Source: an uncultured Acidimicrobiaceae bacterium (GTDB lineage Bacteria; Actinomycetota; Acidimicrobiia; Acidimicrobiales; RAAP-2). Taken from it: DNA of 64,000 nucleotides. How positions within the stretch are numbered: the stretch's first letter is position 1; each line of letters starts with the position of its first letter. Below the pieces are notes generated by a model, which made no database searches, had not been told where the DNA came from, and was given only the letters and a program-made list of their open reading frames with translations. Location: assembly GCA_963833585.1 (NCBI GenBank), contig CAWHYF010000005.1:769774-833773 (forward strand), written 5' to 3'. A program made the translations under genes and the position numbers. Below, in pieces: positions 49,872-64,000 of the stretch.

Positions 49872-50070
49872 GCTGTCTCGGCCGTCGGCGGCCGGCGCGG
49901 CCTCCGACGGATGGGGCCCCAGGGTGCCCGTTGCGCACCGTAGCGCGCCACTCCTGCCACCAGGAAGTTCCGCCGGTCCGCTCGGACCGGTCGGTGGTGC
50001 TCGATGACGCGCTCCCCCACCGACCGTCGAGTTCGGGCCGCCCGCCACCCGTGCCCCTACAGTGCATCGC

Positions 50071-51183
50071 ATGAACTCCGCCGAGGTGGTGGTCCTCCCG
50101 AGCTCCGAGGCCATGGCCCGGTCCGCGGCCGACGAGGCGACGGCGATCCTGCAGGATGCCGTGGACCGCCACGGTGTGGCGCACGCCATGTTCGCCACCG
50201 GCAACTCCCAGCTGGCCTTCGTCGAAGCCCTGTTCGCCCCCGAGCGCCACGTGCCCTGGTCGGAGACGGTGGTGTTCCACATGGACGAGTACGTGGGGGT
50301 GGGACCGGACCATCCGGCCGGATTCCGCCACTGGATCCACGACCGGATCGAGGCCCGGGCCCACCCGAGGGCAACCCACTACCTCGACGGGCTGGCTCCC
50401 CCGGACGAGGAGTGCCGGCGGTACGCCGGACTGCTGCGCGACCACCCCCTCGACCTGTGCTGCCTCGGCATCGGCGAGAACGGCCACCTGGCCTTCAACG
50501 ACCCGCCGGTGGCCGACTTCGAGGACCCGCTCGACGTGAAGGTGGTCACCCTGGACGACGGGTGCCGTCGTCAGCAGGTCAACGAGGGCCACTTCCCCAC
50601 GGTGGGGGAGGTTCCGGCCGAGGCGATGACGGTGACCATCCCGGCCCTGCTCCGGGCCGGGCGGGTGCTGGCCATGGTCCCCGAGGCCCGCAAGGCCGAG
50701 CCGGTCCGTGCGGCCCTGGAGGGCCCGATCGGCACGGCGTGCCCGGCCTCGATCCTCCAACGCACCCCCCACGCCAAGGTCTTCCTGGACCCGGCGTCGG
50801 CCGGGCTCCTCGAGCGCGACGAGCGCGGTAGCGGGCGGGCGGTCCCGCCGCCTACTGCGCGTGGAGGCCCAGCCACCGGTCGAGGAACGGATAGGCCAGC
50901 TCGCCGTGCCACTGGTGCTCGCCGTCGAAGGCGTCGTGGACCAGGCGTTCGCCGGCACCACTGCGCTCGTAGAGCGGCCGCACCTTGGCCAGCGAGGCCT
51001 CGGCCGCGGCCACCGGGAAGAGCAGGTCGTCCCGGCCGTTCTCCACCAGCAGTGGCCGCGGCGCGACGAGCGCCCCGAGATCGGCGTGCTCCATCCGGCC
51101 CAGCATGCCGAACAGCACCTGCGAGCCGCACATGTTCCAGGGCACCTTGTGCGCCTCCGACCAGGAGGAGAAGTAGCCGCTGA
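50071..51183 (+). CDS. Glucosamine-6-phosphate deaminase / 6-phosphogluconolactonase (NagB/SugarP-isomerase) family protein; 3' end doubtful
   Basis: MFATGNSQ, HMDEYVGV and GIGENGHLAFNDP motifs. The recognisable domain ends near 50830 (...LDPASAGLLERDER). The frame then stays open for 110 Arg/Pro-rich codons and overlaps the convergent hydrolase gene by 332 nt. Confidence 0.7.
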   Translation: MNSAEVVVLPSSEAMARSAADEATAILQDAVDRHGVAHAMFATGNSQLAFVEALFAPERHVPWSETVVFHMDEYVGVGPDHPAGFRHWIHDRIEARAHPRATHYLDGLAPPDEECRRYAGLLRDHPLDLCCLGIGENGHLAFNDPPVADFEDPLDVKVVTLDDGCRRQQVNEGHFPTVGEVPAEAMTVTIPALLRAGRVLAMVPEARKAEPVRAALEGPIGTACPASILQRTPHAKVFLDPASAGLLERDERGSGRAVPPPTARGGPATGRGTDRPARRATGARRRRRRGPGVRRHHCARRAAAPWPARPRPRPPGRAGRPGRSPPAVAAARRAPRDRRAPSGPACRTAPASRTCSRAPCAPPTRRRSSR

Positions 51184-51877
51184 CCACGGCGGCGGCCACC
51201 CGGGGGTCGGTGGCGGCGAGGAACAGCGCCATGGTGCCCCCGTAGGAGAAGCCGGCCACACCGATCCGCTCGGGGTCGACCAGCGGATGGGACTCCAGCA
51301 CGTCGAGGGCCCGGGCCAGGTCCCACAGGTTCTGGGTCAACGGATTCCATCCCCCCATGACCTGATGGACCAGGTTGGTGTCGCAGGCGTAATGGTCGTC
51401 GGGATTCCAGTCGGCCCGCTCGCCAAAGCACCGGAGATCCGGGGCCAGCACCACGTGGCCTCGCCGAGCCAGCTCGGCGGCGTAGTCGCTGCCCTCGGGG
51501 GCCTCGGCGTCGAGGCCGCAGATCCGGGATTTTCCCGGGCCGTGCCCGTGGACGGCCAGCACCGCCGGACCGGGCGCCCGCCGGTCGTCGGGGACGAGCA
51601 GGTAGGCGGGGACCGACATGTCCGCCTCGGTGTCGAAGACGATCCGCCACCGCCGGTAGCCCTCGCAGCTCGTCTCGTCGGAGGTCTCCGGGTCGGGCGG
51701 CACCGACTCGGGCCACGGGGCCAGGGTGCGGTGGAGTCGGTCCTCGAACCTCCCGCGCCACGACCCGAACGCAGCCGGGTCGTCGGGCAGCCCGTCGGAC
51801 TCCTCGACGGCCATCAGTCGGCTGACCGCCTGGTACCAGGGGGAGAAGTTGCGTCGGGGGGTGGGCAGCTGGATCAC
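50852..51877 (-). CDS. Alpha/beta hydrolase (dienelactone hydrolase / acetyl-xylan-esterase-like)
   Basis: 341 aa with the nucleophile elbow GFSYGG, plus Asp and His near the C-terminus (GRDDLLFP, GEHQWH). Confidence 0.75.
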   Translation of the reverse strand: MIQLPTPRRNFSPWYQAVSRLMAVEESDGLPDDPAAFGSWRGRFEDRLHRTLAPWPESVPPDPETSDETSCEGYRRWRIVFDTEADMSVPAYLLVPDDRRAPGPAVLAVHGHGPGKSRICGLDAEAPEGSDYAAELARRGHVVLAPDLRCFGERADWNPDDHYACDTNLVHQVMGGWNPLTQNLWDLARALDVLESHPLVDPERIGVAGFSYGGTMALFLAATDPRVAAAVVSGYFSSWSEAHKVPWNMCGSQVLFGMLGRMEHADLGALVAPRPLLVENGRDDLLFPVAAAEASLAKVRPLYERSGAGERLVHDAFDGEHQWHGELAYPFLDRWLGLHAQ

Positions 51878-52063
51878 GGATCGGACTTCCTCTCGGCTGG
51901 GTCACGGCACCGACCCCGGCGGACGCGCCCCGGGGCGCGGTCCCCCCGGCGGTCGAGGCGCTGAGCCGCCTCCTACGTTGCCACAACCCTGCGGGAGGCC
52001 GGTCCCGGAGCCCGCCCTCACCCACCCCCCGGCCGGCCCGCCCCGGTTGAGCCGTGCCCCCCC

Positions 52064-52933
52064 GTGGGGCACACTGGACCGATGGCGGTCGCCACCCAAC
52101 TCGACATCCGGCCCATCTCGCCGATCATCGGCGCCGAGATCCACGGCATCGACCTGTCCCGTCCGCTCGGCTCTCCGGTGGTGGCCGAGGTCAGGCAGGC
52201 GCTCAACACCCACCATGTGGTGTTCTTCCGGGATCAGTCGCTCTCCCCCACCCAACAGGCCGACTTCGCCCGCCAGTTCGGCGAGGTGACCGAGGGCCAC
52301 CCGGTCATCCCGGCCATCGAGGGGAACCCGGAGGTGCTGGCCATCGACGGCCGCGAGGACCGGGCCAGCTGGTGGCACACCGACGTCACCTTCCTCCAGG
52401 CCCCGGCGTTCGGCTCCATCCTCTGCATGCTGGAGTGTCCCGAGGTGGGAGGCGACACCACCTGGGCCAGTCTGCAGGACGCCTACGACCGGCTCTCGGA
52501 GCCGGTACGAACCCTGTGTGACTCCCTGATCGCCATCCACTTCGACCCGTGGTTCGCCGCCGACGTCCAGACCCGGGGCGGCTACGAGTGGGAGGGCCGG
52601 CACTACGAGAAGCTGCTCCCCGCCCTCCACCCGGTGGTGCGCACCCACCCGGAGAACGGGCGCAACGGCCTCTTCGTCAACCCCCAGTTCACCCAGTCCA
52701 TCCTGGGCCTGTCCAAGCACGAGAGCGACGGGATCCTCGACGTGCTCTACCGGCACTGCCAACAGCCCGAGCTGACCTGCCGGTTCCGGTGGCAGCCGGG
52801 CTCGGTGGCCTTCTGGGACAACCGGGCCACCCTGCACTACGCGCTGGACGACTACGGCGACGCCAACCGGGTCGCCCACCGGGTCACCCTGCGGGGGGAC
52901 GTCCCCTACGGCCCGGCCATGCCCCGCCGCTGA
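52064..52933 (+). CDS. TauD/TfdA-family Fe(II)/2-oxoglutarate dioxygenase
   Basis: WHTDVTF (HxD), ...HPVVRTHPENG..., ...WDNRATLHYA.... The start is the GTG at 52064 or the ATG at 52082. Confidence 0.85.
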   Translation: MGHTGPMAVATQLDIRPISPIIGAEIHGIDLSRPLGSPVVAEVRQALNTHHVVFFRDQSLSPTQQADFARQFGEVTEGHPVIPAIEGNPEVLAIDGREDRASWWHTDVTFLQAPAFGSILCMLECPEVGGDTTWASLQDAYDRLSEPVRTLCDSLIAIHFDPWFAADVQTRGGYEWEGRHYEKLLPALHPVVRTHPENGRNGLFVNPQFTQSILGLSKHESDGILDVLYRHCQQPELTCRFRWQPGSVAFWDNRATLHYALDDYGDANRVAHRVTLRGDVPYGPAMPRR

Positions 52934-52960
52934 GCGGCCCGGGACCGGCGCCGGCCGGTG

Positions 52961-53875
52961 TCAGCGGGGACCCCGGGCCGGGTCGTCGGGCAGCCCGGCT
53001 CCTCCGGCACCCCCGGCCACCGCACCGTTGGCCGACCTGGGCCGCGCCCCCGACACGGCCAGGGCCTCCTCGCTGGCCCCGAGGTAGGCCGCCAGCGCCC
53101 GGGGGTCCCGCTGCACCTCCTCGGGCGTGCCCGTCGACACCACCGAGCCGGTCTCCATCATGACCACCTTGGTGCACAGGGCGAAGACCAGGGGCACGTC
53201 GTGTTCCACCAGCACGATGGTGGTGTCGGCCAGCTGGTGCAGCCGCCGGAGCAGCGGCACGAAGGCCTCGGCCTCCCGCTGGGCGATGCCGGCGGTGGGT
53301 TCGTCGAGGAGCAGCAGTCGGGGGCGGGCCAGCACCATCGAGGCCAGGTCGACCACCCGTCGGGTCCCCGTGGAGAGCTGGGCGATGCGGTGCCGTCGGA
53401 AGCGATCGATGCCGAACGAGGCGATGACCCCGTCCACCTCGGTCCGCTTGGCCCGCTCGGAGCGCCGGGCCCACGGGAGTTGGAGGGTCGAGGCGACCAC
53501 CCCGACCGGGCGCCGGGCGTCGAGGGTGAGCATCAGCACGTCCTCCACCGACAGCTCGGGGAAGAGGCGGCAGTCCTGGAACGAGCGCACCAGGCCGAGG
53601 GACGACCGCTCCTCGGGCAGGTACTCCACCAGGCTCTCCCCGTCCATGCGCACCGAGCCGGACCCCGGCGTCACCAGGCCGGAGATGACGTCGAGGAGGG
53701 TGGTCTTGCCCGAGCCGTTCGGCCCGATCAGGCCCACGATGGCCCCGGGGTCGGCCGACAGGTCGGCGCCGGCCACGGCCCGCACCCCACCGAAGTCCAC
53801 CACCACCCCCTTGACGTCCAGCCGGGCCGGTCCGGGCCGCTCGCCGGCGTCCGGCGGAGCGGGGGCCGGGCTCAC
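52961..53875 (-). CDS. Branched-chain-amino-acid-type (HAAT family) ABC transporter ATP-binding protein, LivG-like
   Basis: This is the last 305 codons of the spurious 1601-aa ORF. The GTG at 53875 overlaps the permease stop (GTGA). Walker A GPNGSGKTT, signature-like LSTGTRR, Walker B LLLLDEP. Confidence 0.85.
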   Translation of the reverse strand: MSPAPAPPDAGERPGPARLDVKGVVVDFGGVRAVAGADLSADPGAIVGLIGPNGSGKTTLLDVISGLVTPGSGSVRMDGESLVEYLPEERSSLGLVRSFQDCRLFPELSVEDVLMLTLDARRPVGVVASTLQLPWARRSERAKRTEVDGVIASFGIDRFRRHRIAQLSTGTRRVVDLASMVLARPRLLLLDEPTAGIAQREAEAFVPLLRRLHQLADTTIVLVEHDVPLVFALCTKVVMMETGSVVSTGTPEEVQRDPRALAAYLGASEEALAVSGARPRSANGAVAGGAGGAGLPDDPARGPR

Positions 53876-55869
53876 CCCGCCACCGAGCCCAGGACCGGTT
53901 CGGGGTCGCCGGTCCCGGGGCCGCCGTCGGGCCCGGGCGGGGCCTTCCGGATGGCCAGGAGGCGCTCGAGGCCCACGGTGACCAGGTCGCCCAGTTGGTG
54001 GAGCAGGTCGGCCAGACCCCCGGGAAGGTACAGGATGAAGGCCAGGAGACCGATCCCGCTGGTCAGGAACTGGATGGTCGGGGTGGTCCCGAACAGGGCC
54101 GGGATCCCCACCAGGTAGACGGCGCCGAGCACCGCCCCGTCGATGGAGCCCAGGCCGCCGATGACCACCATGGAGACCACCAGGATCGAGAAGGACGGGT
54201 CGAAGGTGGAGGTCGAGAACCGCTCGGTGGCGAAGGCCAGGCACACCCCGGCGTAGCCGGCGATGAAGCCCGACAGGGCGAAGGCCAGCAGCTTGGTCCG
54301 GGCCAGGGGGATCCCGGTGGCCCCGGCCCCGGTCTCGTTGTCCCGTACCGCGATCAGTCGACGGGCCACCCCCCGGTCCCGCCACACCCGGACCATGAGT
54401 ACCGACACCACCAGGACGGCCAGGGAGAACCAGGCGAAGGAACGGGCCGAGGCCAGCTGGATGCCGAGGAAGCTGGGGGGCGCGATGAGGGTCGACTGGG
54501 GGTTGGGCAGGCCGGTGCAGAGCGACTTGCCCACCAGCGGCAGGGTCCAACAGGGGGTGGACAGGACCGAGCCCATCAGCCACAGGCTGAAGGCCAGCGT
54601 GCTCACCGCCAGGTACAGGCCGCGCACCCGAAGGGCCGGAAGCCCCACCAGCACGGCGATCACCGCGGTGACCGCACCGGCGAACGGCATGAGCAGGATG
54701 AGCGGGACGCTGGTTCCGAGGTGGGCGGCCATCAGCGCTCCGCAGGCCACCAGGCCGAACTGGCCCAGCGAGACCTGACCGGCCCACCCGGTGAGCACGG
54801 TGAGGGAGAGGGCGATCACCGCGTAGATGCAGATCTGGGACAGCAGGAAGGAGCGGCCGGTGCTGACCACGAAGGGCAGCAGCGCCACCACCACCACCGT
54901 GGCCACCACGCCGGTCGCGCCCACCCGGCGACGGAGCGGCCCGTCGTGGTGGCGCTGGTCGCGGGAGCTCTCCAGCCAGGTGGACCGGTCCTCGCGCCGC
55001 CCTCCGGTGGGGAGGGCGGCGATGCGGACCAGCAGCACCAGCAGCACCATGGCGAACAGCACCAGGTCCACCTGGGCCGTGCTGGACAGGTTCCACACCA
55101 GGATCTCCTGGATCACCCCCACCCCGATGGCGGCCACGAAGGCCACGGTCAGGTTGACCATGGCCCCCACCATGGCCGCGGTCAGGGCCAGCAGCAGCAG
55201 TTCGGGGCTGAGCACCTCGGTGAGGGACGAGGTCTGCCCCGGGGCGGCCAGGATGGCGGCGAAGGCCGACAACACCCCGGCCAGGGTCCAGGTCACCGTG
55301 GAGGTGCGCCGGACCCAGACCCCGGACAGCCGGGCCGAGTCGGCGTTCTCGGCCATGGCCCGCATGGCCAGGCCCCACGGCGACCACTTGACGAAGGCGG
55401 CCAGGGCGATGGCCACCAGGGGAGCCACCACCAGGGTCACCACCTGACCCGGGGTGAACAGGTAGGTCCCGATGTGGAAGGAGAAGTGGACCGGCACCGG
55501 GAACGGCTTGAACAGGTTCTTGGGACGGATGAAGGGCAGGGCGGTGAACACGAACAGCACCTGGCTGAGTCCGATGGTGGCCACCATCACCAGCACCCGG
55601 GGACGGTTGAACAGGCGGCGCAATAACAGCTCGGAGAGGGCCCCCACCGCCGCCGCCAGGAGCAGGGAGAGCGCCAGGGCGAACCAGTAGTTGAACCCGA
55701 AGTCGTAGAAGCACTTGACCAGGAACACCGCCGCCACCACCCCCAACTGGCCCTGGGCGAAGTTGAGGACCCGGTTGGTCCGGTAGATGAGGACCAGGCC
55801 CATGGCCAGCAACCCGTACCCGAGGCCGGTGATGACACCCTGGACCAGGACGAAGCTGGGGATCGACAT
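53872..55869 (-). CDS. Fused LivH-LivM type ABC transporter permease
   Basis: 665 aa in two halves. The first resembles LivH (LLAMGLVLIYRTNRVLNFAQG) and the second resembles LivM (LTGWAGQVSLGQFG), joined by a charged linker. Confidence 0.85.
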   Translation of the reverse strand: MSIPSFVLVQGVITGLGYGLLAMGLVLIYRTNRVLNFAQGQLGVVAAVFLVKCFYDFGFNYWFALALSLLLAAAVGALSELLLRRLFNRPRVLVMVATIGLSQVLFVFTALPFIRPKNLFKPFPVPVHFSFHIGTYLFTPGQVVTLVVAPLVAIALAAFVKWSPWGLAMRAMAENADSARLSGVWVRRTSTVTWTLAGVLSAFAAILAAPGQTSSLTEVLSPELLLLALTAAMVGAMVNLTVAFVAAIGVGVIQEILVWNLSSTAQVDLVLFAMVLLVLLVRIAALPTGGRREDRSTWLESSRDQRHHDGPLRRRVGATGVVATVVVVALLPFVVSTGRSFLLSQICIYAVIALSLTVLTGWAGQVSLGQFGLVACGALMAAHLGTSVPLILLMPFAGAVTAVIAVLVGLPALRVRGLYLAVSTLAFSLWLMGSVLSTPCWTLPLVGKSLCTGLPNPQSTLIAPPSFLGIQLASARSFAWFSLAVLVVSVLMVRVWRDRGVARRLIAVRDNETGAGATGIPLARTKLLAFALSGFIAGYAGVCLAFATERFSTSTFDPSFSILVVSMVVIGGLGSIDGAVLGAVYLVGIPALFGTTPTIQFLTSGIGLLAFILYLPGGLADLLHQLGDLVTVGLERLLAIRKAPPGPDGGPGTGDPEPVLGSVAG

Positions 55870-55878
55870 GACCGACGG

Positions 55879-58083
55879 CTAGCCCAGTCCGTCCACGGCC
55901 GCCCCCAGGAACACCGGGCGCAGCAGATCGCTCCGCTCCAGGAGGTCGGCGGTGGGCCCGTCGAAGCGGACCTCGCCGCGCTCGAGGAAGAAGGCCCGCT
56001 CGGCCAGGCTCATGGCCCGGTTGACGCTCTGCTCCACCAGCACCACCGTGGTGCCCTGGCGGTTGACCTCCCGCACGATGGCCATCAGCCGGTCCACCGC
56101 CATGGGGGCCAGCCCCAGAGCCAGCTCGTCGATCATCAGGAGCTTCGGCTCGGTCATCATGACCCGGGCCAGGGCCAGCATCTGCTGCTCGCCGCCCGAG
56201 AGGGTGCCGGCCGGCTGGTGGAGGCGCGGGGCCAGCTCGGGGAAGCGGTCGACCGCCTCGTCCAGGGCGGCCCGGGACCGGGACCCCTGGCCCCGCAGGG
56301 AGTGGCTCCCGACCAAGAGGTTGTCCCGCACGGTCAGGCCGGTGAAGGTCATCTTGCCTCCGACCAGCAGGGCCACGTCCCGGCGGATGATCTGCTCGGG
56401 CTCGAGGTAGGTGCAGTTGGTTCCGTAGATGCGGATTACGCCACGGTGGGGGTGGTCGAGCCCGGCCACCGCCCGTAGCAGGGTGGACTTGCCGGCGCCG
56501 TTGGTGCCGAGCAGGGCGACGATCTCGCCCTGGCCCACTTCGAGGTTGACGTCGAACAACACCTGGTTGGTGCCGTAGTAGAAGTCGAGATTGTGGACCT
56601 GCAGGGCCGGGAGGTCGCCCCCGGCCTGCCGGCGGGCGCCCTCGGCGTGGCGTTCCAGCACGTCCTCGATGACCAGGGTGATGTCGCGCCGGACGTAGCG
56701 GGAGCCGACGAGCAACATGAACCCCCCGATGACGCAGACCGGACCGATCAGGGTGAGAGCCGCCGTGGGCCCGTTCCGGTAGCCGACGGCGTCGCTCACC
56801 GCCCCGAGGAGGACGCCACCGGCGAACCCTCCGAAGACCAGGGAGTACACCCCGAACATGGCGAAGCAGATGGTGCGCATCTCCGCCGGCGCGGTGGCAG
56901 CCAGGGTCAGGAAGATGCAGATGGCCAGCGGCGAGATCGCTGCGTTGGCCAGGAACTGCAGGGTCACCACCATCCACAGCTCGGGCAGGTACAGCGAGGC
57001 CACGTACAGGCCCCCGTAGGCGGCGATGCAGATCCCGGCGATGACCAGGGGACGTTGGGGGGCGCGGCGGAAGTACCGGTCGCCGAGGACATAGGCCAGG
57101 GGCAGGCCGAGGAAGGCGGCCAGTCCGATGACGGAGTAGACCTCGCTCCTCTGGGCGGTGTCCAGTCCCCACACCCGCACGAAGTACAGGTTCCCGAACA
57201 GCGGTGCCGCCGTCCCGGCGAAGCCCAGGATGGCCACGGCCACCAGCTCGTAGTAGATGGAGCGGATCCGCAGCAGGCGGGTGATGGCCGAACCCAGCAG
57301 GACCCGGGGGGCATCGCTCTGCTGGGAGTGCAGGTCCATGCCGGAGGCCTTCAGGATGTGACTGGACTCGTTCTGGCCCTTGTCCGGCTCGTTCAGGGTG
57401 AACAGTGACAGCCCGAGGGGGATCCCCACCAGGGCGATGAGCATCCCCCACCGCCAGTTGTGTCCGACGGTGACCACCAGCCCGAAGATCAGGATCCCCA
57501 CCGTCTGGGACAGCGGATCGGAGAGGTTGTGCCAACTGAACACCCGCCCCCGACCCTCGGTGGGATAGGCATCGGAGAGATACGAGTTGTGGACGGTGTT
57601 GTTCACCCCGGACCCGATCGAGGCGATCAGGTAGAGGAAGGTGAAGACCCACACGTTGGGGGACAGGGCCATCAGCGGGGTGAACACGGAGAAGATGATC
57701 AGCGCCACCCCGGCCACCACCTTGCGGCTCCCCCGGTCGGCCCACAGGGCCAGAGGCACCGCCCACAACAGCTGGGCGGCCGATCCGACGAAGGTCACCG
57801 CGCCGAGGGCGGCGTCGTGGATGTGGAAGGAGGCCTCGAGGTTGGTGCCGATGTTGGCGATGCCGTTTCCGACCGTGCCCGGCACCAACGCGGCCAGCGT
57901 GAGCAGCACCAGGGGGGAGTAACCGAACTGGTTGAGGATGCCGACCAGGGGCGGCGGCTTGCCTTCGCCGGTGCCGGGCATGGAGGCCAGGTCGGCGACG
58001 GCGTCGGGGTTGCTGCTCTTGGCGACGACCTCTTTGAGGAGTTCGTCGGGTACGGCGAAGTCGAACACCACCTGGTCGGCCAT
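55879..58083 (-). CDS. MFS-like 12-TM domain fused to a LivF-like ABC ATP-binding domain
   Basis: 734 aa. The N-terminal roughly 480 aa are hydrophobic with an MFS motif-A-like LWADRGSRK. The C-terminal roughly 240 aa have Walker A GTNGAGKST, signature LSGGEQQ and Walker B LLMIDE. Confidence 0.8.
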   Translation of the reverse strand: MADQVVFDFAVPDELLKEVVAKSSNPDAVADLASMPGTGEGKPPPLVGILNQFGYSPLVLLTLAALVPGTVGNGIANIGTNLEASFHIHDAALGAVTFVGSAAQLLWAVPLALWADRGSRKVVAGVALIIFSVFTPLMALSPNVWVFTFLYLIASIGSGVNNTVHNSYLSDAYPTEGRGRVFSWHNLSDPLSQTVGILIFGLVVTVGHNWRWGMLIALVGIPLGLSLFTLNEPDKGQNESSHILKASGMDLHSQQSDAPRVLLGSAITRLLRIRSIYYELVAVAILGFAGTAAPLFGNLYFVRVWGLDTAQRSEVYSVIGLAAFLGLPLAYVLGDRYFRRAPQRPLVIAGICIAAYGGLYVASLYLPELWMVVTLQFLANAAISPLAICIFLTLAATAPAEMRTICFAMFGVYSLVFGGFAGGVLLGAVSDAVGYRNGPTAALTLIGPVCVIGGFMLLVGSRYVRRDITLVIEDVLERHAEGARRQAGGDLPALQVHNLDFYYGTNQVLFDVNLEVGQGEIVALLGTNGAGKSTLLRAVAGLDHPHRGVIRIYGTNCTYLEPEQIIRRDVALLVGGKMTFTGLTVRDNLLVGSHSLRGQGSRSRAALDEAVDRFPELAPRLHQPAGTLSGGEQQMLALARVMMTEPKLLMIDELALGLAPMAVDRLMAIVREVNRQGTTVVLVEQSVNRAMSLAERAFFLERGEVRFDGPTADLLERSDLLRPVFLGAAVDGLG

Positions 58084-58160
58084 TGAGCAGTCACCCTATC
58101 CCTGGGCGGTTGCCGGGACACAGCTGTTTCCCGCCGCCGGGGCGAACGACTCGGGCCCGC

Positions 58161-59441
58161 TCAGGCCCCCTCCGGCGTGGGGCCTCGGGGCGTGGCCACG
58201 GTGAGTGGCCCCCGGGGCAGCACGCAGAGCCGGGCCGGCCGGCCCTCGAGCCGGGACCGGGCCGCCAACGCCTCGGCCACGGCGGCGGACGGGTCGGTCA
58301 CCGGCAGCATCCGGGCCGCCCGGACCCACTCGTCGGTGAGGCCCTGCGAGTACATCCACACCTGGGCCCGGCCGAGGACCCGGCCGAGCACCTGGGACTG
58401 CCACCCGTCCACCTCCCCGGGCCCGACCGGCCGGGCCAGCTGCTCGACGGAGGGGGCGGCCCGGAGGATCCGGGCGAAGGCCCCGTCCTCGGGGACGCCG
58501 TCGCCACACGCCGCCGCCATCACGATGATCCCGCCCTCGGTCACCACCCGTTCCGCCGCGGCCAGGCCCTTGACCGCCTGGTACAGGTTGCGGTCGAGCG
58601 GATGGCCGCCGTTGGTGGTGAGCACGACGTCGAACCGGCCGGGCACCGACCGGGTGACCGAGCGGGACGCCGCCGCCACGGCGGCCCGGTGGCTGTCCGG
58701 CAGGGTGCCGACGAACACCCCGGTGAGCCGGCGCTGGTCGTCGATGGTGACGTCGACGACCAGATCCGGCGGGCACCGCGAGGTGGCGGCGCTCACGAAG
58801 TCGTGCACGGGATTTCCCCGGGTGGCCAGCCAGGTGGAACCGGGGTCGGCGATCCGCCCCGGACTGTGGGCCTCGATGACGGTGGAGGTGGCGGCCAGCC
58901 CGGGACAGGTCCCTTTCGGACCTCCGCTCCAGCCGGCGAAGAAGTGGGGCTCGACGAACCCGGTCAGGATCCGGCGGTCGGCCTCCACGTACCGTCGGTC
59001 GAGGAGGATGGGGACCCCGTCGACGGCACCGACGGCGACGTGGTCCGGGTCGTCCGACCGGTGCTGGTGGATCCGGTACCGCTCGACGATGGCCGACCCG
59101 ACCAACTCGGCCAGTTCGGCCGGGGTGGCCGAGCGGTGGGTGCCGGTGGCGCACAACAGGTCGACCCGGTCCGGTCCCGCCCCGGCCCGCTCCAGCTCGG
59201 CCAGCAGCGGAGGCAGCACGGTGGTGTTGGGCATCGGCCGGGTGATGTCGGGGAAGACCACCACCACCCGATCGCCCGGTGCCACCAGATCGGCGAGCGG
59301 CCGCCCGCACAGCGGCGACCGGAGCGCCTGCTCCACCGCACCCCACTCGTCGGCCAGCGGCGTTGAGCCGGTGGGCTCGACCACGACGGCCTCGGGCGGC
59401 ACCTCCACGGTCAGACCGTCGGTGCCGTAGGCCACGGTCAC
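58161..59441 (-). CDS. LarA-like nickel-pincer-nucleotide-dependent 2-hydroxyacid racemase/epimerase (DUF2088 family)
   Basis: The GTG at 59441 overlaps the kinase stop (GTGA). 426 aa with CATGTHR and FVEPHFFAGWSGGPKG...EAH, giving H-x9-K-x15-H spacing. Confidence 0.75.
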   Translation of the reverse strand: MTVAYGTDGLTVEVPPEAVVVEPTGSTPLADEWGAVEQALRSPLCGRPLADLVAPGDRVVVVFPDITRPMPNTTVLPPLLAELERAGAGPDRVDLLCATGTHRSATPAELAELVGSAIVERYRIHQHRSDDPDHVAVGAVDGVPILLDRRYVEADRRILTGFVEPHFFAGWSGGPKGTCPGLAATSTVIEAHSPGRIADPGSTWLATRGNPVHDFVSAATSRCPPDLVVDVTIDDQRRLTGVFVGTLPDSHRAAVAAASRSVTRSVPGRFDVVLTTNGGHPLDRNLYQAVKGLAAAERVVTEGGIIVMAAACGDGVPEDGAFARILRAAPSVEQLARPVGPGEVDGWQSQVLGRVLGRAQVWMYSQGLTDEWVRAARMLPVTDPSAAVAEALAARSRLEGRPARLCVLPRGPLTVATPRGPTPEGA

Positions 59442-60913
59442 CCGCACGCCCGGACCTCCGGACCGCTGGGCCGGCCCAGCGGGAGCAGGGCGGCGACGGC
59501 CCGGTCCGACCGCGGCCGTAGGGAGCGATAGGCCGGGACGACCTCGGGGTCCGGCCGGTGCCGGCGCACCACGGGGTCCAGCCGGTCGAGGTCGGTCTCG
59601 ATCCCGACCGCCCGGGCGGCCAGCAGGGCGGCCCCCGCCGAGGCCGCCTGCCCCGAGCGGCGGGAGTGGGCCGGCAGCCCGGTGACCCCGCAGAGCACCT
59701 CGGTCCACACCTCGACCTCGGCCCCGGAGCCCCCGAGGGCCAGCCCGGTCGGCACCGGGCCCGAGGGCCGGCGATCGGACGCCACCTCCAGGCAGCGCTG
59801 CACCTCCCAGGCCACCGCCTCGTACGCCGCCCGGGCCAGGTCACCGGGGCCGTGCCCGGCGTGCAGTCCCACGAAGCCGACGGTGGCCTCGTCCCGCCAC
59901 CACGGGGCCCGGGCCCCCTCCAGCCAGGGGACGGCCACCACCCCTCCTGCGCCCGGCGGGCTCACCGCGGCCCACTCGGCCAACGTCTCGGCCGGTTGAC
60001 CGACCAGGCGCCCGATCCACGCCACCAGGGATCCGGCCGCCGACAGACCACCCTCCAGCAGCCACCCCCCGTCGGCCGCCCGGGACAGCACCACGCCGGC
60101 CGGCGCCCGAGCCGGCCGGTGACCGAGCGGGACCGAGACGTTGGCCGTCGTGCCCCAACTGACCATGGGACGGTCCTCGGCCGCCCCGGAGCCGAGCACC
60201 TCACAGGCGCGGTCGCCGGCCCCGATCACCACCGGCAGGCCGCCGGCCAGCCCCAGTGCCGCCGCCGCCGGCCGGGTGAGGGGTCCGGTGACGCGGTCCG
60301 GCGGCACCTGGGGCGGGAGCAGGACGGCCGCCTCGCCGGCCAGGGCCGGATCCAACCGGCCGTCGAGGTCGTAGAGGCCGCTGCGCGAGGCCATGGTGGG
60401 GTCGGTGGCCACCACGCCGGTGAGGCGGTGGGTCACCAGGTCCCTCGGGGTGAGTACCCAAGAGGCGGCGGCCAGGAGGTCGGGGTGGTTCGACCGCAGC
60501 CACCCGAGCTTGGCGGCAACCGATGCTGCGTCGAGGGGGATCCCGCTCGGGGCCGGGGCCCCTCCCCCACCCTCAGTCTTCTCGGCCAACCGGCGGGCCT
60601 CGCCCCCCGCCCGGCGGTCCGACCAGCCGATGGCCGGCCCCAGAGGGCGGCCGTCGGCGTCCACCAGTACCAACGTCTGGCGGGCGCCCGTGCAGCCCAC
60701 CACGTCCACCGCGGCATACGCCTCCGGCGCCCGGTCCCTCACCTCCGAGCAGGCCGAGACCACCGTGGCCCACCACTCGGTGGCGTCCTGCTCGGACCGG
60801 CCCGGTCGTGGATGGGTGGTCCCGACCGGCCGCCCGGCGTGGGCCACCCGGCCGTCCGGGCCCCACACGGCCACCTTGGTGACGCTCGAGCCGAGGTCGA
60901 CGGTGAGGATCAC
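59438..60913 (-). CDS. FGGY-family carbohydrate kinase
   Basis: N-terminal ILTVDLGSSVTKVAVW (actin-fold phosphate-1), ...WSDRRA..., and a C-terminal FGGY_C pattern (GGSGAEVEVWTEVL). GTGA overlap with the aldolase stop. Confidence 0.8.
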   Translation of the reverse strand: MILTVDLGSSVTKVAVWGPDGRVAHAGRPVGTTHPRPGRSEQDATEWWATVVSACSEVRDRAPEAYAAVDVVGCTGARQTLVLVDADGRPLGPAIGWSDRRAGGEARRLAEKTEGGGGAPAPSGIPLDAASVAAKLGWLRSNHPDLLAAASWVLTPRDLVTHRLTGVVATDPTMASRSGLYDLDGRLDPALAGEAAVLLPPQVPPDRVTGPLTRPAAAALGLAGGLPVVIGAGDRACEVLGSGAAEDRPMVSWGTTANVSVPLGHRPARAPAGVVLSRAADGGWLLEGGLSAAGSLVAWIGRLVGQPAETLAEWAAVSPPGAGGVVAVPWLEGARAPWWRDEATVGFVGLHAGHGPGDLARAAYEAVAWEVQRCLEVASDRRPSGPVPTGLALGGSGAEVEVWTEVLCGVTGLPAHSRRSGQAASAGAALLAARAVGIETDLDRLDPVVRRHRPDPEVVPAYRSLRPRSDRAVAALLPLGRPSGPEVRACG

Positions 60914-61743
60914 CCGGCGTGCACGACGTCCGCCAGGCGCTTTGCGGCCAGACCGGGGGACGACTCCTCGAGGATGGCCCGGCCCATGGCCAGCCCGGCC
61001 CCGCCCCCGGCCATCACATCCCGGGCCTCCCGCAGGACGCCGTCGGCGCCGTCGGATCGGTGCGGACCCCCGAGGAAGAGGACCGGTACCCCGACGCTGG
61101 CCGCCACCCGTCCCACCGCCTCGACCCGGGGATCACCCGGCGGCCGCTCCGGGACCGGGACCTTGAGCAGGGGCGCCCCGAGGTCGTGGGCGATGACCGA
61201 GGCCAGGACCACGTCGTCGGTCTGCTTGGACATGGTCCCGTGGCGCCAGATCACCGGCTCGATCATGGCCTCGAGCCCCGACGCCCGGGCCTCCTCCAGG
61301 ACCTGGCCCAGCAGGGCCAGTCCGGCGGCGCCGCCCGGGTCGGCGTAGTCGATGCGGGTCATGAGCTTGATCCCGGTCCAACCGTCGGCGGCGGCCCGGG
61401 CCACGCTGGCCACCAGCCGGTCGTCGAGTTCGAAGGCCGAGCCGGCCAGCCCGGTCCGGTTGATCGACAGATAGGTGCGGTGACCGGGTCGGAGCGAGCC
61501 GTTGCGGGCCAGGTCACCGAGCGGCTGCGCCGTCGCCAGGATGCCGTCGCAGTGGGCCAGGGCCTCGCCGGCCGCTCCGAGGTAGTCGGCGTAGGACTCG
61601 ATGGTCATCACGCCGCGCGCCCGGTGGTCGGCCGCCAGGACCAGGGCGGGGGTCGGGAGGAGAGGGGCGGCGGTCCGGTGGTGGTCGCCCGCGGCCCCCG
61701 TCGGTCCCTGGCCGCCCGTCCCGGTGCCACCCACCCCGTTCAC
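60910..61743 (-). CDS. Class I aldolase, DeoC/LacD (TIM-barrel) family
   Basis: The GTG at 61743 overlaps the upstream stop (GTGA). ...ALVLAADHRA..., WTGIKLMTRI (candidate Schiff-base Lys) and GGAGLAMGRAI. Confidence 0.65.
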   Translation of the reverse strand: MNGVGGTGTGGQGPTGAAGDHHRTAAPLLPTPALVLAADHRARGVMTIESYADYLGAAGEALAHCDGILATAQPLGDLARNGSLRPGHRTYLSINRTGLAGSAFELDDRLVASVARAAADGWTGIKLMTRIDYADPGGAAGLALLGQVLEEARASGLEAMIEPVIWRHGTMSKQTDDVVLASVIAHDLGAPLLKVPVPERPPGDPRVEAVGRVAASVGVPVLFLGGPHRSDGADGVLREARDVMAGGGAGLAMGRAILEESSPGLAAKRLADVVHAG

Positions 61744-62627
61744 TCCAGTCCGGCCCGGGCGAAGACCACCTTGGCCACCGCCGAGAAGTCCTGGCGGCCG
61801 TACCCGGCCGCACTGGCCGCGCCGAGTGCCTCCCGGGCCACCTCGGTGGTGGCCAGGGACACGCCGGCCGACGAGGCGTAGTGCAAGGCCAGGTCGAGGT
61901 CCTTGGCCATGAGATCGGTCATGAAACCGGGCTTCCACCCGTTGGAGGCCGGGCTCTCCGGGATGACCCCGGCGACCGGCAGCCGGGTCCGCACGGCCAC
62001 GCAGTCCCCCGTGGAGTGGAGGAGCACCTGGTGCAACTTGTCCATGTCCACCCCGGATCTCACCGCCAGGGCTGACGCCTCGGCCGTGGCCACCATCTGA
62101 GCCGCGTAGATCAGGTTGTTGCACAACTTCACCACCTGGCCCATCCCCGCTCCGCCGACGTGGACGATCAAGCCGGCGAAGGGGTCGAGGGCCGGGCGCA
62201 CCGCTTCCAGGGTCGCCTCGTCCCCCCCGACCATGAGGGTCAGCGTGCCCTTCTCCGCCCCGGCCGTGCCGCCCGAGAGAGGGGCGTCGAGGAACGCCGC
62301 GCCGGTGGCGGCCACCCGTTCGTGCTGGGCCCGCTCCACCTCGGGGTCGATGGTCGAGCAGTCCACCACCACCTTCCCCGGTCCCAGGGCGGGCAGCATG
62401 GCGTCCACCACGTCGACCACCTGGGGCGAACTCGGGACACAGAGGATCACCACCTCGCTGACCTCGGTCACCCGGAGCGGATCGGTCCCGTCGACGGCCC
62501 CCAGGGACACCGCCTGGGCCACCGGCCCGGGGCTCCGCGAGGACACGGTGACCCGGTGGCCGGCCTCCACCAGGTGCCGGGCCATGGGCAGGCCCATCGC
62601 CCCCAGTCCGACGAAGCCGATCTGCAT
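61740..62627 (-). CDS. NAD(P)-dependent beta-hydroxyacid dehydrogenase (HIBADH / tartronate-semialdehyde-reductase family)
   Basis: ATG at 62627 after GAGGAGG. IGFVGLGAMGLPMA Rossmann motif, DAPLSGG, and GAGMGQVVKLCNN with the catalytic Lys. Confidence 0.85.
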   Translation of the reverse strand: MQIGFVGLGAMGLPMARHLVEAGHRVTVSSRSPGPVAQAVSLGAVDGTDPLRVTEVSEVVILCVPSSPQVVDVVDAMLPALGPGKVVVDCSTIDPEVERAQHERVAATGAAFLDAPLSGGTAGAEKGTLTLMVGGDEATLEAVRPALDPFAGLIVHVGGAGMGQVVKLCNNLIYAAQMVATAEASALAVRSGVDMDKLHQVLLHSTGDCVAVRTRLPVAGVIPESPASNGWKPGFMTDLMAKDLDLALHYASSAGVSLATTEVAREALGAASAAGYGRQDFSAVAKVVFARAGLE

Positions 62628-62712
62628 GGGGTCCCTCCTCATCGATGTCCGAACCCGTCGAGGGTCCCTCGCCGGCAGGCCCCGGGGCAACTGCCCCGGT
62701 CGGTCGGTCGGT

Positions 62713-64000
62713 TCAGGTGGTGAACTGGGGGAGCCACGCCGCCGTGGCCGCCAGGAGCTCCCCCACCATGGACTCGGTCCGATGGAGGTCGCCCCGACCG
62801 GCCAGGGGGTCGAGGAAGAAGGCCGCTTCGGCCAAGGCACGGTCGCCCTCCACGGCGGCGGCCACCGTCAGCTCGGCGACCGCCACGTGACGACGAACCA
62901 GCTCGTCGTAGGGCGCCGGCAGCGGGGCCACGTCCCGACCCCGGATACCGTCGCCGTCGACCACACAGATCGATTCGACCACCGACGGTTCGGGCACGTC
63001 GGGGACCTGGCCGGCGTTGGGGATGTTGGCCGGGAGCTCGCGCCGCTCACCGGTCACCAGCGAGTCGATCACCAGGGCCGGGAGCTCGCCCGAGAACCAG
63101 GTCTGGAGCTCCTTGGTGCCTGCTAGCCAGGCGTCGACGTCGGCGACGTAACCCGCCTGGTGCTCCTGACGGGTGCCGATGGAGGTCAGCTCGAGGTTGA
63201 AGTCGGCCCCCCAGTGCGAGGCCTCGGTCAGTACCCACGGCAGGAACTCGGCGATGTGGCGGTCCCCGGCGGCGGGGAGGGCACCCCACTTGTCCAGCAG
63301 CGTGAGTTTGAGGGCGTGACGTTGGACGAAGTCGAGGCGCGAGAAGGTCTCGGCCTCGGGGCGGCCGGGGTGGGGGCCCAGGGCGGCCAGGCCTCCGGCC
63401 TCGTCCACCATCTCGGCCAGGATGGTGAATCCGTCCCTCCCGTCCACGTCCAGGGCGGTGACCACCGGGAAGTGGTTCACCCCGGCCACGGTGGGCCGGA
63501 CCGCCTCGGCCGGGAGACCGAGCGCGATGGCCAGATCCATGGACCAGTTCCCGACCTCGTGGCACAGGCCGACGGCCCGCACCGAGGTCTGCCGGCAGAC
63601 GGCGCGGGTCAGGCAGGACATCGGGTTGGTGATGTTGAGCAGCCAGGCGTCGGGGCAGACCTTCCCCATGTCCTCGGCCACCCCCACCAGAACCGGGATG
63701 TTGCGCAGGGACCGGCTGATGCCCCCCGGGCCCACGGTGTCCCCCACCGACTGGCGGATGCCGTACCGGGCCGGAATCTCGAGATCGAACCCCATGGAGT
63801 CGAACCCGCCGGTGGAGATGGTGACGATCACGAAGTCCGCGCCGTCCAGGGCCTGGCGTTGGTCGGTGGTGGTCGACACGGTGGCGGCGGCCCCCATCGA
63901 CTCGTTGAGCAGCGCGGCCAGCGACGCCATCTTGTCCAGCGGGGCGGGGTCGATGTCCTCGAGGACGTAGTGGGCGCCCCGGAGCGACTCGGTGCCCAGC
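62713..64000 (-). CDS. Glycoside hydrolase family 4 (NAD+/Mn2+-dependent glycosidase), 5' end outside the window
   Basis: NITNPMS...VGLCHE signature of GH4. The frame stays open to the window edge. Confidence 0.8.
   Translation of the reverse strand, partial: LGTESLRGAHYVLEDIDPAPLDKMASLAALLNESMGAAATVSTTTDQRQALDGADFVIVTISTGGFDSMGFDLEIPARYGIRQSVGDTVGPGGISRSLRNIPVLVGVAEDMGKVCPDAWLLNITNPMSCLTRAVCRQTSVRAVGLCHEVGNWSMDLAIALGLPAEAVRPTVAGVNHFPVVTALDVDGRDGFTILAEMVDEAGGLAALGPHPGRPEAETFSRLDFVQRHALKLTLLDKWGALPAAGDRHIAEFLPWVLTEASHWGADFNLELTSIGTRQEHQAGYVADVDAWLAGTKELQTWFSGELPALVIDSLVTGERRELPANIPNAGQVPDVPEPSVVESICVVDGDGIRGRDVAPLPAPYDELVRRHVAVAELTVAAAVEGDRALAEAAFFLDPLAGRGDLHRTESMVGELLAATAAWLPQFTT

Follow-up and report, generated by a model that had tools for sequence, protein, structure and literature searches.

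What role could a homolog of LarA, the nickel-pincer nucleotide (NPN)-dependent lactate racemase, play among the genes of a sugar kinase and an aldolase? The question is raised by positions 52961–64000 of a 64,000-nt stretch of contig CAWHYF010000005.1, from an uncultured Acidimicrobiaceae bacterium (the window; all coordinates refer to it unless a locus is named), where the gene for such a homolog lies in an operon together with genes for an FGGY-family kinase, a class I aldolase, a 3-hydroxyisobutyrate dehydrogenase (HIBADH)-type reductase, a glycoside hydrolase of family 4 (GH4) and a Liv-type transporter. The cluster is a conserved catabolic operon of soil Acidimicrobiales with a four-enzyme core made up of the FGGY kinase, the aldolase, the HIBADH-type enzyme and LarA, and this core is probably a genuine module of acid-sugar catabolism in which an NPN-dependent, small-substrate racemase or epimerase takes part.

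Organization and conservation of the operon

Because the window has a G+C content of ~72%, its raw lists of open reading frames (ORFs) are crowded. Third-position G+C picks one coding frame across 52961–64000, on the minus strand throughout, and the ORF list and its translations bear out the eight same-strand genes that the original prediction, made from the letters of the window, had drawn from the window edge to 52961:

62713 to beyond 64000, minus strand: GH4 glycosidase of the NAD+/Mn2+ type; 5′ end cut at the window edge, frame open to base 64000
61740–62627, minus strand: HIBADH-type dehydrogenase/reductase
60910–61743, minus strand: class I aldolase
59438–60913, minus strand: FGGY kinase
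58161–59441, minus strand: LarA homolog
55879–58083, minus strand: fusion of a major facilitator superfamily (MFS) domain with LivF (MFS::LivF), 77 nt downstream of LarA
53872–55869, minus strand: LivH::LivM fusion permease
52961–53875, minus strand: LivG-type ATP-binding cassette (ABC) ATPase

The families and gene order that had been claimed are supported by Pfam and NCBIfam, and the junction sequences agree with the four GTGA overlaps (61740/61743, 60910/60913, 59438/59441, and 53872/53875) and with gaps of 85, 77, and 9 nt at the remaining junctions, so that the tight packing of the operon is borne out as well. Since 4-nt overlaps are frequent in the window (8 of 41 same-strand neighbor pairs, counted window-wide), the GTGA overlaps represent ordinary operon packing and nothing special. 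Matches to promoter and terminator consensus sequences across 52000–64000 were at chance level and inside genes, and the 85-nt and 77-nt intergenic stretches fold no more stably than shuffled sequences (z = 0.10 and −0.32), a result that speaks neither for nor against internal termination.

A genome scan recovered 55 loci, all of them in Acidimicrobiales/Acidimicrobiaceae metagenome-assembled genomes (MAGs) at species level, and all complete loci show the same order, GH4-HIBADH-aldolase-FGGY-LarA-MFS::LivF-LivHM-LivG. Most loci continue with a convergent TauD-family gene and an alpha/beta hydrolase gene, both of which have been lost in the most divergent locus (L043), where the eight genes are kept. 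Locus L001 (ENA ERZ25039482 contig_68853) matches the window at 96.8% identity and can serve to extend it as regards gene content, but 94 indels against the window sequence leave its gene calls broken up. The aldolase gene and the LarA gene are each split into two calls (e.g., P0084, P0121), which look like long-read indel artifacts that seed fragment clusters in protein databases. Rfam scans of L001 and of another locus of the order, L022, gave no match. Synteny confined to a single taxonomic order cannot, on its own, prove functional coupling.

Recurrence of the core genes outside the Acidimicrobiales

Beyond the order, kinase and aldolase form a cross-domain pair, with which the HIBADH-type enzyme and LarA each recur in independent arrangements. 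The FGGY gene adjoins this aldolase family in an Actinomycetes MAG (L070), in loci L066, L068, and L144, and in archaeal loci. In L070, the genes for a thiolase, the aldolase, the FGGY kinase, an IolB-like isomerase and LarA follow one another, overlapping or abutting, and their products are 58% (aldolase), 40% (FGGY), and 54% (LarA) identical to the window proteins; a Zn-dehydrogenase weakly similar to L-idonate 5-dehydrogenase and IolM is encoded nearby. In L066, L068, and L144, the FGGY (48% identity), HIBADH (65–70%), and aldolase (57–60%) genes occur together, with no LarA gene in view. The FGGY gene of these loci is accompanied by genes for a GMC/gluconate-2-dehydrogenase-like flavoprotein and a gluconate-2-dehydrogenase subunit 3, and divergent from them runs an arm encoding an ADP-forming CoA ligase similar to 3-hydroxypropionate/4-hydroxybutyrate-CoA ligases, an enoyl-CoA hydratase, a lipid-transfer-type thiolase, the HIBADH-type reductase and the aldolase. 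The L068 cluster lies beside a type I-U-like CRISPR-Cas locus (Cas_GSU0053/GSU0054).

The archaeal loci (L058–L064, L067), on contigs that also carry PCNA, GINS, and archaeal ribosomal protein genes, feature the FGGY-aldolase pair next to a DeoC paralog, a fusion of DeoC with a 4Fe-4S ferredoxin and an aldehyde:ferredoxin oxidoreductase. In a low-GC bacterial clade (L057, 4578–13328; L065, 3568–12350), the aldolase family occurs in an operon with LacI, iol-like genes and glycerate kinase. Its order is LacI, IolO-like epimerase, IolB, AP_endonuc_2, and IolG-like dehydrogenase, followed by Cgl0159-type aldolase, ADP-dependent kinase (PFK/GK family), glyoxylate/hydroxypyruvate reductase (450.3 bits), and glycerate kinase (491.7 bits), and it has the appearance of an undescribed pathway from inositol or a uronate to dihydroxyacetone phosphate (DHAP) and glycerate. 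In a metagenome scan with the L070 IolB-like protein, canonical iol clusters made up most of what was recovered, and a second aldolase-FGGY-IolB-LarA operon was not among the loci.

Because these associations recur outside the Acidimicrobiales, kinase, aldolase, reductase and LarA can be regarded as a real functional module. The accompanying IolB, IolO, IolG-like, and gluconate-dehydrogenase-like genes all point toward uronates or keto-aldonates.

Predicted substrate range of the LarA homolog

By its domain architecture, the protein encoded at 58161–59441 is assigned to the LarA superfamily of NPN-dependent 2-hydroxyacid racemases and epimerases, with Pfam Lar_N (PF09861, 179.4 bits) and LarA_C (PF21113, 96 bits) both above cut-off. 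It does not reach the cut-off of the NCBIfam lactate racemase equivalog Ni_dep_LarA (NF033504; 376.7 bits vs. 460) and also scores below those of the LarAH5, LarAH6, LarAH10, LarAH14-16, and LarAH18 models, placing it, as judged from these scores, in an uncharacterized clade below all NCBIfam LarA equivalog cut-offs. The closest solved structure is that of the broad-spectrum LarA of Isosphaera pallida (9EIA, 240 bits), and the Lactobacillus plantarum LarA (5HUQ) matches at 178 bits. The H-x9-K-x15-H spacing that had drawn attention to the protein was recovered in a phmmer alignment to 5HUQ, where H166-FFAGWSGGP-K176-x15-H192 aligns residue for residue with His174/Lys184/His200. The codons concerned, and those of a second pair of pocket residues, are located as follows:

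58866–58946, minus strand: H166-F167-F168-AGWSGGP-K176-x15-H192, from the 5HUQ alignment
58398–58403, minus strand: W347-Q348, at the positions of Trp358/Thr359 (L. plantarum LarA) and Trp356/Gln357 (I. pallida LarA)

On this alignment, H166 corresponds to the catalytic His174, F167 and F168 to Phe175 and Phe176 of the pocket, K176 to the NPN-tethering Lys184, and H192 to the Ni-ligand His200; W347 and Q348 would close the pocket for the C-alpha substituent (residue roles per PMC11770544 and PMC11851776). Asp72, Arg75, His108, His174, Ser180, Lys184, His200, Tyr294, Gln295, and Lys298 of 5HUQ are all kept (D65, R68, H102, H166, S172, K176, H192, Y287, Q288, and K291 in the window protein), a set that comprises the catalytic His108 and His174, the NPN-binding Arg75, Lys184, and His200, and the carboxylate binders Tyr294, Gln295, and Lys298. 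With its catalytic, cofactor-binding, and carboxylate-binding residues intact, the protein does look catalytically competent, as had been supposed. The H-FF...K...H arrangement is found in 120 of the 120 homologs listed and W-Q in at least 96 of them, and the L070 LarA shows the same HFF..K..H, YQ..K, and WQ residues.

The four pocket residues (F167, F168, W347, and Q348) match the F, F, W, E/Q signature of the lactate-racemase (LAR) group and differ from that of the gluconate 2-epimerases (GntE), which carry E, V, A, and H at the same positions (Urdiain-Arraiza et al., PMC11770544). Members of the LAR group racemize lactate, glycerate and 2-hydroxybutyrate, and the Gln-bearing LarAH43 acts on glycerate with an efficiency equal to or above that on lactate (PMC11770544). 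In LarA structures, the pocket is lined by these residues and made small by the two Phe (Gatreddi et al., PMC11851776). A pocket of F, F, W, and Q hence suggests, as the most likely substrate of the LarA homolog, a 2-hydroxy acid of three or, at most, four carbons, and a substrate of this size would place the enzyme at the end of the route.

The original prediction had placed it upstream, inverting a 2-hydroxy center of a sugar acid ahead of kinase, aldolase, and reductase. Such an upstream epimerase could operate on C5 of a hexuronate (D-glucuronate to L-iduronate) or on C2 of a hexonate or 5-keto-hexonate (L-gulonate to L-idonate), and there is precedent in the superfamily, some members of which epimerize D-gluconate/D-mannonate (PMC7583248; PMC11770544). 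The L070 arrangement can also be read in this sense, with LarA following the IolB-like isomerase, the Zn-dehydrogenase nearby, and no HIBADH gene. However, the F, F, W, Q pocket is shared by the window protein, that of L070, and the homologs listed; Phe175/Phe176 and Trp358 admit only small C-alpha substituents (PMC11851776); and the NCBIfam "putative hexonate epimerase" model gives the window protein a negligible score (28 bits). Inversion before phosphorylation is, on these grounds, improbable.

Aldolase, kinase, and reductase

The aldolase matches Pfam PF22649 with 91.7 bits (cut-off 27) and DeoC with 44.1 bits, and its PDB match is 3FOK (Cgl0159, 57 bits). Its description as a DeoC/LacD-type class I aldolase hence stands as regards class and clan, but the protein is better termed Cgl0159-like (PF22649) than LacD or YihT proper. 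In an alignment with distant members of the family (A1), K126 and E162 are invariant and K194 is present in 11 of 12 sequences; these residues appear to match the Lys/Glu/Lys set of LacD-type class I aldolases, an equivalence by motif position and not by structure. The family is very small, with 332 matches at E ≤ 1e-3 among 1.84 billion representative proteins, many of them fragments of one clade. A search of a plasmid collection gave two weak matches only, and a literature search on Cgl0159, PF22649, and cg0198 returned only unrelated methylation-probe matches.

Cgl0159-type proteins, to which the aldolase is ~30% identical, adjoin canonical IolB in at least 30 of 72 metagenome loci, and another Cgl0159-type relative is fused to IolC (P0203), placing the aldolase subfamily, to judge from its relatives, as sister to the aldolase of inositol clusters. 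These iol-linked neighborhoods agree with the proposal that the DUF2090/LacD-like domains fused to IolC are 2-deoxy-5-keto-gluconate-6-phosphate (DKGP) aldolases (PMC9007349). The iol association to be expected of a DKGP aldolase is missing here, as no IolB-like gene was found in the window or in L001–L056.

This kinship brings in a deoxy route modeled on the lower inositol pathway, in which a 2-deoxy-5-keto-hexonate would yield DHAP and malonate semialdehyde, the latter would be reduced to 3-hydroxypropionate, and LarA would be a racemase of lactate or another compound with no chemical role in the route. Besides the iol-cluster aldolases being the nearest relatives, the linkage of reductase and aldolase to a 3-hydroxypropionate-CoA-ligase-like enzyme and an enoyl-CoA hydratase in L066, L068, and L144 argues for such a route, as does the reductase being closest to 3-hydroxyisobutyrate dehydrogenases. 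The position of LarA argues against it: the gene is translationally coupled to that of the kinase in the window and is found again with kinase, aldolase, and isomerase in L070, a coupling that is hard to explain without a substrate in the pathway, and neither 2-deoxy-5-keto-gluconate nor 3-hydroxypropionate is a 2-hydroxy acid. With IolC, IolD, IolE, and IolG also absent from the locus, the deoxy route appears quite unlikely.

The kinase carries FGGY_N (143 bits) and FGGY_C (85.6 bits) domains and falls below every NCBIfam equivalog cut-off, the best being XylB (209.7 vs. 380 bits); its PDB match is the E. coli xylulokinase (139 bits). The reductase, with Pfam NAD_binding_2 (153.1 bits) and NAD_binding_11 (104.2 bits), belongs to the HIBADH/beta-hydroxyacid dehydrogenase family, and its best PDB match is the Mycobacterium tuberculosis HIBADH (5Y8G, 192 bits). 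It reaches the cut-off of none of four HIBADH-family equivalog models, scoring 270.7 bits on HIBADH (TIGR01692, cut-off 291.6), 198.9 on tartronate semialdehyde reductase (cut-off 340.75), 160.8 on L-threonate dehydrogenase (cut-off 350), and 144.4 on sulfolactaldehyde reductase (cut-off 348).

The L-threonate dehydrogenase match (160.8 bits) is one of the observations that fit a variant of the C4 acid-sugar (L-threonate/D-erythronate) route, for which the four genes would be complete down to DHAP. The HIBADH-type enzyme would oxidize the tetronate, the FGGY kinase would replace the DUF1537 kinase OtnK, and the class I "aldolase" would use its Schiff base to decarboxylate 3-oxo-tetronate 4-phosphate to DHAP in place of the class II OtnC; LarA would epimerize C2 of the tetronate, several stereoisomers thus feeding one pathway. 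Known tetronate routes do lead to DHAP by way of an L-threonate 2-dehydrogenase of the HIBADH family, a kinase, and a decarboxylase (PMC12994016), and no step would be missing from the locus. Weak C2-epimerase activity of LAR-type enzymes on 4-deoxy-threonate/erythronate and 2,4-dihydroxybutyrate has been reported (PMC11770544), and the IolO-like protein of L057 also matches 2-oxo-tetronate isomerase (61 bits). However, LAR activity on C4 polyhydroxy acids lies ~100- to 1000-fold below that on lactate and glycerate (PMC11770544), and the reductase matches the models of HIBADH and of tartronate semialdehyde reductase better than that of threonate dehydrogenase. The occurrence of aldolase relatives beside aldehyde:ferredoxin oxidoreductase in archaea, or beside hydroxypyruvate reductase and glycerate kinase in L057, speaks for true aldol cleavage with release of a C3 compound; IolB-like isomerases and GH4 point to hexoses, and no member of the OtnK, OtnC, or OtnI families is present. 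A tetronate route is hence considered unlikely.

Proposed pathway

In the preferred model, the substrate would be an acidic hexose in keto form, that is, a hexulosuronate or 5-keto-aldonate such as the hexuronate-derived D-fructuronate or D-tagaturonate. The FGGY kinase would phosphorylate the terminal CH2OH beside the keto group, and the aldolase would cleave the product into DHAP and a C3 oxo-acid, here tartronate semialdehyde, in the manner of IolJ/Cgl0159-type enzymes with 2-deoxy-5-keto-gluconate 6-phosphate. The HIBADH-type enzyme would then reduce tartronate semialdehyde to L-glycerate, and the LarA homolog would convert L-glycerate to D-glycerate, which a glycerate kinase with its gene elsewhere would pass on to glycolysis. 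The sugar itself may be released by GH4 from an alpha-glycoside taken up by the cell. All these chemical steps are drawn by analogy with IolB, IolC, and IolJ.

HIBADH-type enzymes take (S)-3-hydroxyisobutyrate, L-serine, and L-glycerate, and all characterized substrates of the family are, to our knowledge, 3-hydroxy acids or their semialdehydes. An L-glycerate product would be expected from the fate of C5 of a D-hexuronate, which ends up as C2 of the C3 fragment, and from the use of (S)/L-series substrates by HIBADH enzymes, and, if the aldolase product is reduced by an enzyme of this type, glycerate would be the only 2-hydroxy acid that can arise. An L-series product and a small pocket together would make LarA sensible as an L- to D-glycerate racemase feeding glycerate kinase. 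Tartronate semialdehyde reductases, for their part, prefer D-glycerate (PMC3031564). The clade represented by L057 and L065 appears to solve the conversion of the C3 acid to D-glycerate differently, through an isomerase-type TIM-barrel protein, hydroxypyruvate reductase, and glycerate kinase. Taken as a whole, from a hexuronate-type keto acid to DHAP and tartronate semialdehyde, and on through L-glycerate to D-glycerate by way of LarA, the model is put forward tentatively, as a proposal more apt to fail in some part than to hold throughout.

Several findings weigh against it. Neither the window nor any of the 55 Acidimicrobiales loci encodes an aldose-ketose isomerase (IolB/UxaC type), a glycerate kinase, or a hydroxypyruvate reductase. 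As had been noted originally, larB, larC, and larE are missing from the window (Pfam scans of nearly all other ORFs revealed no such domains, a few large housekeeping genes, recognizable by translation, being left unscanned), and they are likewise absent from the Pfam lists of the L001 and L070 flanks. The reductase is closer to the 3-hydroxyisobutyrate dehydrogenase model than to that of tartronate semialdehyde reductase, and L070 has no HIBADH neighbor. The context of L066, L068, and L144 suggests a better fit to a malonate-semialdehyde/3-hydroxypropionate route. The preference of Gln-type LAR enzymes for glycerate derives from one characterized enzyme, and an alpha-uronidase role for GH4 draws on a structure match to the alpha-galacturonidase LplD only, since model and plasmid matches point to alpha-galactosidase.

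Glycosidases and the possible supply of substrate

The GH4 protein (Glyco_hydro_4, 158 bits; Glyco_hydro_4C, 106.5 bits) lacks ~21 codons at its 5′ end in the window, visible in L001 and in a further locus of the order, L002; the full length is 449 aa in L001 and L022. Family membership is supported by the Cys-His metal/catalytic motif "GLCHE" in the translation, and the NAD-binding GGGS, which falls outside the window, was located in the L002 ortholog (93% identity). The protein scores 311.2 bits on the MelA-type alpha-galactosidase model PRK15076, below its cut-off of 486, and its best solved structure is LplD (3FEF, 170 bits), so that, by these comparisons, it seems as close to alpha-galactosidases as to alpha-galacturonidase. 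The closest plasmid homolog, with 36% identity and no plasmid match above that value, lies in a Ruegeria galactoside cluster; such matches would weaken, without settling, the alpha-uronidase idea. The original prediction had counted GH4 among the pathway enzymes, a membership that synteny supports within the Acidimicrobiales only: neither GH4 nor the Liv-type transporter ever recurs with the module outside the order.

The genes upstream of GH4 vary among loci and encode a secreted GH78 rhamnosidase, a secreted, faintly GH32-like protein, GH1, GH13, or ThuA. The secreted GH78 alpha-L-rhamnosidase, present upstream in 29 loci, could be taken to indicate a 6-deoxyhexose or sulfoquinovose route, in which DHAP and (sulfo)lactaldehyde would be formed and the latter reduced to propanediol or 2,3-dihydroxypropane-1-sulfonate (DHPS), as in rhamnose degradation and in the sulfoglycolytic Embden-Meyerhof-Parnas (sulfo-EMP) pathway, with LarA acting on lactate or sulfolactate. 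A TauD-family dioxygenase is indeed a convergent neighbor, and the enzyme logic parallels YihT/YihU. The variability of the upstream glycosidases (GH78, GH1, GH13, ThuA) and their absence from L043 detract from this reading, the reductase scores worst on sulfolactaldehyde reductase (144 bits, and 115 bits in the structure search) and would yield no lactate or sulfolactate for LarA, and no RhaA/RhaI, YihS, PfkB kinase, or GH31 is present. With the contexts of the relatives (IolB, IolO, gluconate-2-dehydrogenase-like) indicating uronate or keto-aldonate chemistry instead, a route of this kind is very improbable.

In many relatives, among them L002 (1122–5185) and L022 (1396–5332), in the region corresponding to that beyond window position 64000, the gene for a GH78 protein with a Tat signal overlaps the start of the gene for a secreted protein of 335–400 aa. 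This protein, encoded upstream of GH4, has no Pfam match and a faint GH32-like similarity, and may belong to an undescribed beta-propeller glycosidase family.

The Liv-type transporter

The transporter genes display an unusual architecture, in which a full MFS_1 domain is fused N-terminally to a LivF/UrtE-type ABC ATPase and LivH is fused to LivM. In MFS::LivF, Pfam MFS_1 spans aa 81–421 and ABC_tran aa 510–653, and the NCBIfam UrtE (180.7 bits) and LivF (172.1 bits) scores are both below cut-off. LivH::LivM is a single 665-aa permease with two stretches of BPD_transp_2, below the cut-offs of UrtB, LivM, and UrtC, and LivG carries ABC_tran and BCA_ABC_TP_C, with LivG (176.4 bits) and UrtD (176.3 bits) scores again both below cut-off. 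The ATPases and fused permeases of the Liv-type ABC importer originally proposed are thus present, but one ATPase has an N-terminal MFS domain, and neither the window nor the locus flanks examined revealed a gene for a solute-binding protein.

The proposal that the importer belongs to the pathway fares less well. The transporter is absent from L066, L068, L070, L144, and every other relative of the module outside the order, and in two loci, L022 and L044, it is separated from LarA by an inserted amidohydrolase gene and an inserted RNase Z-like gene of opposite orientation. It is also far more conserved than the enzymes: transporter proteins are 80–98% identical across most of the order (MFS::LivF, 81–98% amino acid identity in most of the 55 loci and lower in a few divergent or frameshifted ones), compared with 54–72% for FGGY and 65–89% for LarA. 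The transporter is hence probably a conserved neighbor rather than a component of the pathway.

Flanking genes

Downstream of the operon lie a convergent TauD-family dioxygenase gene (52082–52933, plus strand; 280.7 bits vs. the taurine dioxygenase cut-off of 313) and an alpha/beta hydrolase gene (50852–51877, minus strand) with weak acetyl-xylan-esterase/CE15-like similarity, neither of which recurs with the module outside the Acidimicrobiales. A glucuronoyl esterase function was considered for the hydrolase and rejected, as the CE15 match is limited to the nucleophile-elbow region and, at 33–35 bits, too weak. An ORF with PF01182 (6-phosphogluconolactonase/glucosamine-6-P isomerase; 50062–51183, plus strand) encodes 373 aa, against 249–260 aa in L001 and L002, and its extended tail overlaps the opposite-strand hydrolase gene; the PF01182 gene stays near the operon even in the divergent L043.

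Farther away, a SpoIID-like secreted protein (33708–35681, minus strand) shows, in its translation, a tandem array of six or more ~40-aa repeats that follow the pattern 'GYWLVASDGGIFTFGDAGF.GS'. The minus-strand region 3754–23796 holds housekeeping genes, namely dapE, dapD, an aminotransferase, hflX, dapF, miaA, miaB, dapA, and dapB (Pfam), together with ftsK, RNase J, and PNPase, recognized from translations only; an AurF-like di-iron oxygenase (20233–21366) and two TetR regulators are encoded among them.

Comparison with known systems

The parallel with YihT/YihU that had been drawn for aldolase and reductase is chemically apt, but closer analogs are found in the lower myo-inositol pathway (IolB/IolC/IolJ) and in GarL/GarR. 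The preferred model shares with the former the logic that leads from a uronate through a 5-keto-aldonate and its 6-phosphate to DHAP and a C3 oxo-acid; its aldolase has homologs in the IolB-adjacent Cgl0159-type proteins, and the related L070 operon includes an IolB-like isomerase. In contrast, an FGGY kinase takes the place of the PfkB kinase IolC, the window locus is devoid of IolB, IolD, IolE, and IolG, and the C3 fragment is passed to an HIBADH-type enzyme and LarA instead of the CoA-acylating dehydrogenase IolA. Because a 2-hydroxyacid racemase is present, the substrate, as opposed to that of the inositol pathway, would be non-deoxy.

The sulfo-EMP pathway (YihS, YihV, YihT, and YihU) likewise deploys a kinase, a class I aldolase, and an HIBADH-family reductase on a C6-acidic hexose, generating DHAP and a reduced acidic C3 compound. 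Its kinase is of the PfkB type rather than FGGY, its aldolase belongs to another subfamily, and LarA has no counterpart in it; its hallmarks (the YihS isomerase, PfkB-type sulfofructose kinase, and GH31) were not among the Pfam matches of the window or the loci. The lower part of glucarate/galactarate degradation (GarL, GarR, and GarK) offers a precedent for the reduction of aldolase-released tartronate semialdehyde to glycerate by an HIBADH-family enzyme. GarL differs in being a class II pyruvate aldolase with a non-phosphorylated substrate, GarK is missing from the window locus, and, since GarR makes D-glycerate directly, the glucarate pathway needs no racemase. The C4 acid-sugar pathways (Ltn2D, OtnI, OtnK, and OtnC) resemble the cluster in that a small acid sugar is processed by an HIBADH-family dehydrogenase, a kinase, and a lyase that yields DHAP, and depart from it in their DUF1537 kinase and class II lyase (FGGY and class I here), in OtnI, which is absent here, and in having no counterpart of LarA or GH4.

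With LAR-group LarA enzymes (L. plantarum, I. pallida, and LarAH43/LarAH51), the window protein shares fold, domains, catalytic, NPN, and carboxylate residues, and the F-F-W-E/Q pocket. It is at most ~45% identical to characterized members and below the NCBIfam lactate-racemase cut-off, its gene lies in a sugar-kinase/aldolase operon and not by larBCE, lactate permease, or lactate dehydrogenase genes, and its host belongs to an actinobacterial lineage of aerobic soils.

As far as its gene content tells, the cluster hence lacks defining features of each of the inositol, sulfo-EMP, GarL/GarR, and tetronate systems. The original remark that the gene combination is not recognizable as a described pathway holds in the literature searched, where no paper combining LarA with FGGY and aldolase, and none on tagaturonate or fructuronate kinases or their phosphates, was found. 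Furthermore, Table S1 of the 2020 survey of LarA superfamily gene contexts lists no LarAH group with COG1830, COG2084, or COG1486 (DhnA-type aldolase, HIBADH, or GH4). The operon thus brings known families together in a new combination, a kinase/aldolase sugar-acid pathway that is apparently undescribed.

Biological significance

Physiological roles are known for very few LarA-family enzymes, and what purpose LAR-type members serve in vivo with their activities on glycerate and 2-hydroxybutyrate has been stated to be unknown (PMC11770544). The operon provides a testable context, consisting of four soluble enzymes and few candidate substrates, for which an established NPN-loading system in E. 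coli is available, and it suggests a first role for a lactate/glycerate-type nickel-cofactor racemase in carbohydrate use. An undescribed, glycolysis-like "uronate-EMP" route for hexuronates or 5-keto-aldonates in soil Actinomycetota, combining isomerization, 1-phosphorylation by an FGGY kinase, a new family of class I aldolases that yields DHAP and tartronate semialdehyde, and an NPN-dependent glycerate racemase that resolves the D-uronate to L-glycerate stereochemistry, is possible, if doubtful in this full form. Were it true, a LarA-type enzyme would for the first time have a defined physiological function in the breakdown of carbohydrates, and this in a lineage that is aerobic. The preferred model would furthermore add a fourth way of hexuronate catabolism to the isomerase, oxidative, and reductive routes, give a function to a tiny orphan family of aldolases, and bring nickel-pincer chemistry to abundant uncultured soil Acidimicrobiales. 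Even with another substrate, the recurrent linkage of kinase, aldolase, and LarA anchors the annotation of more than 1000 metagenomic proteins that are now labeled "lactate racemase," "fructose-bisphosphate aldolase," and "xylulokinase."

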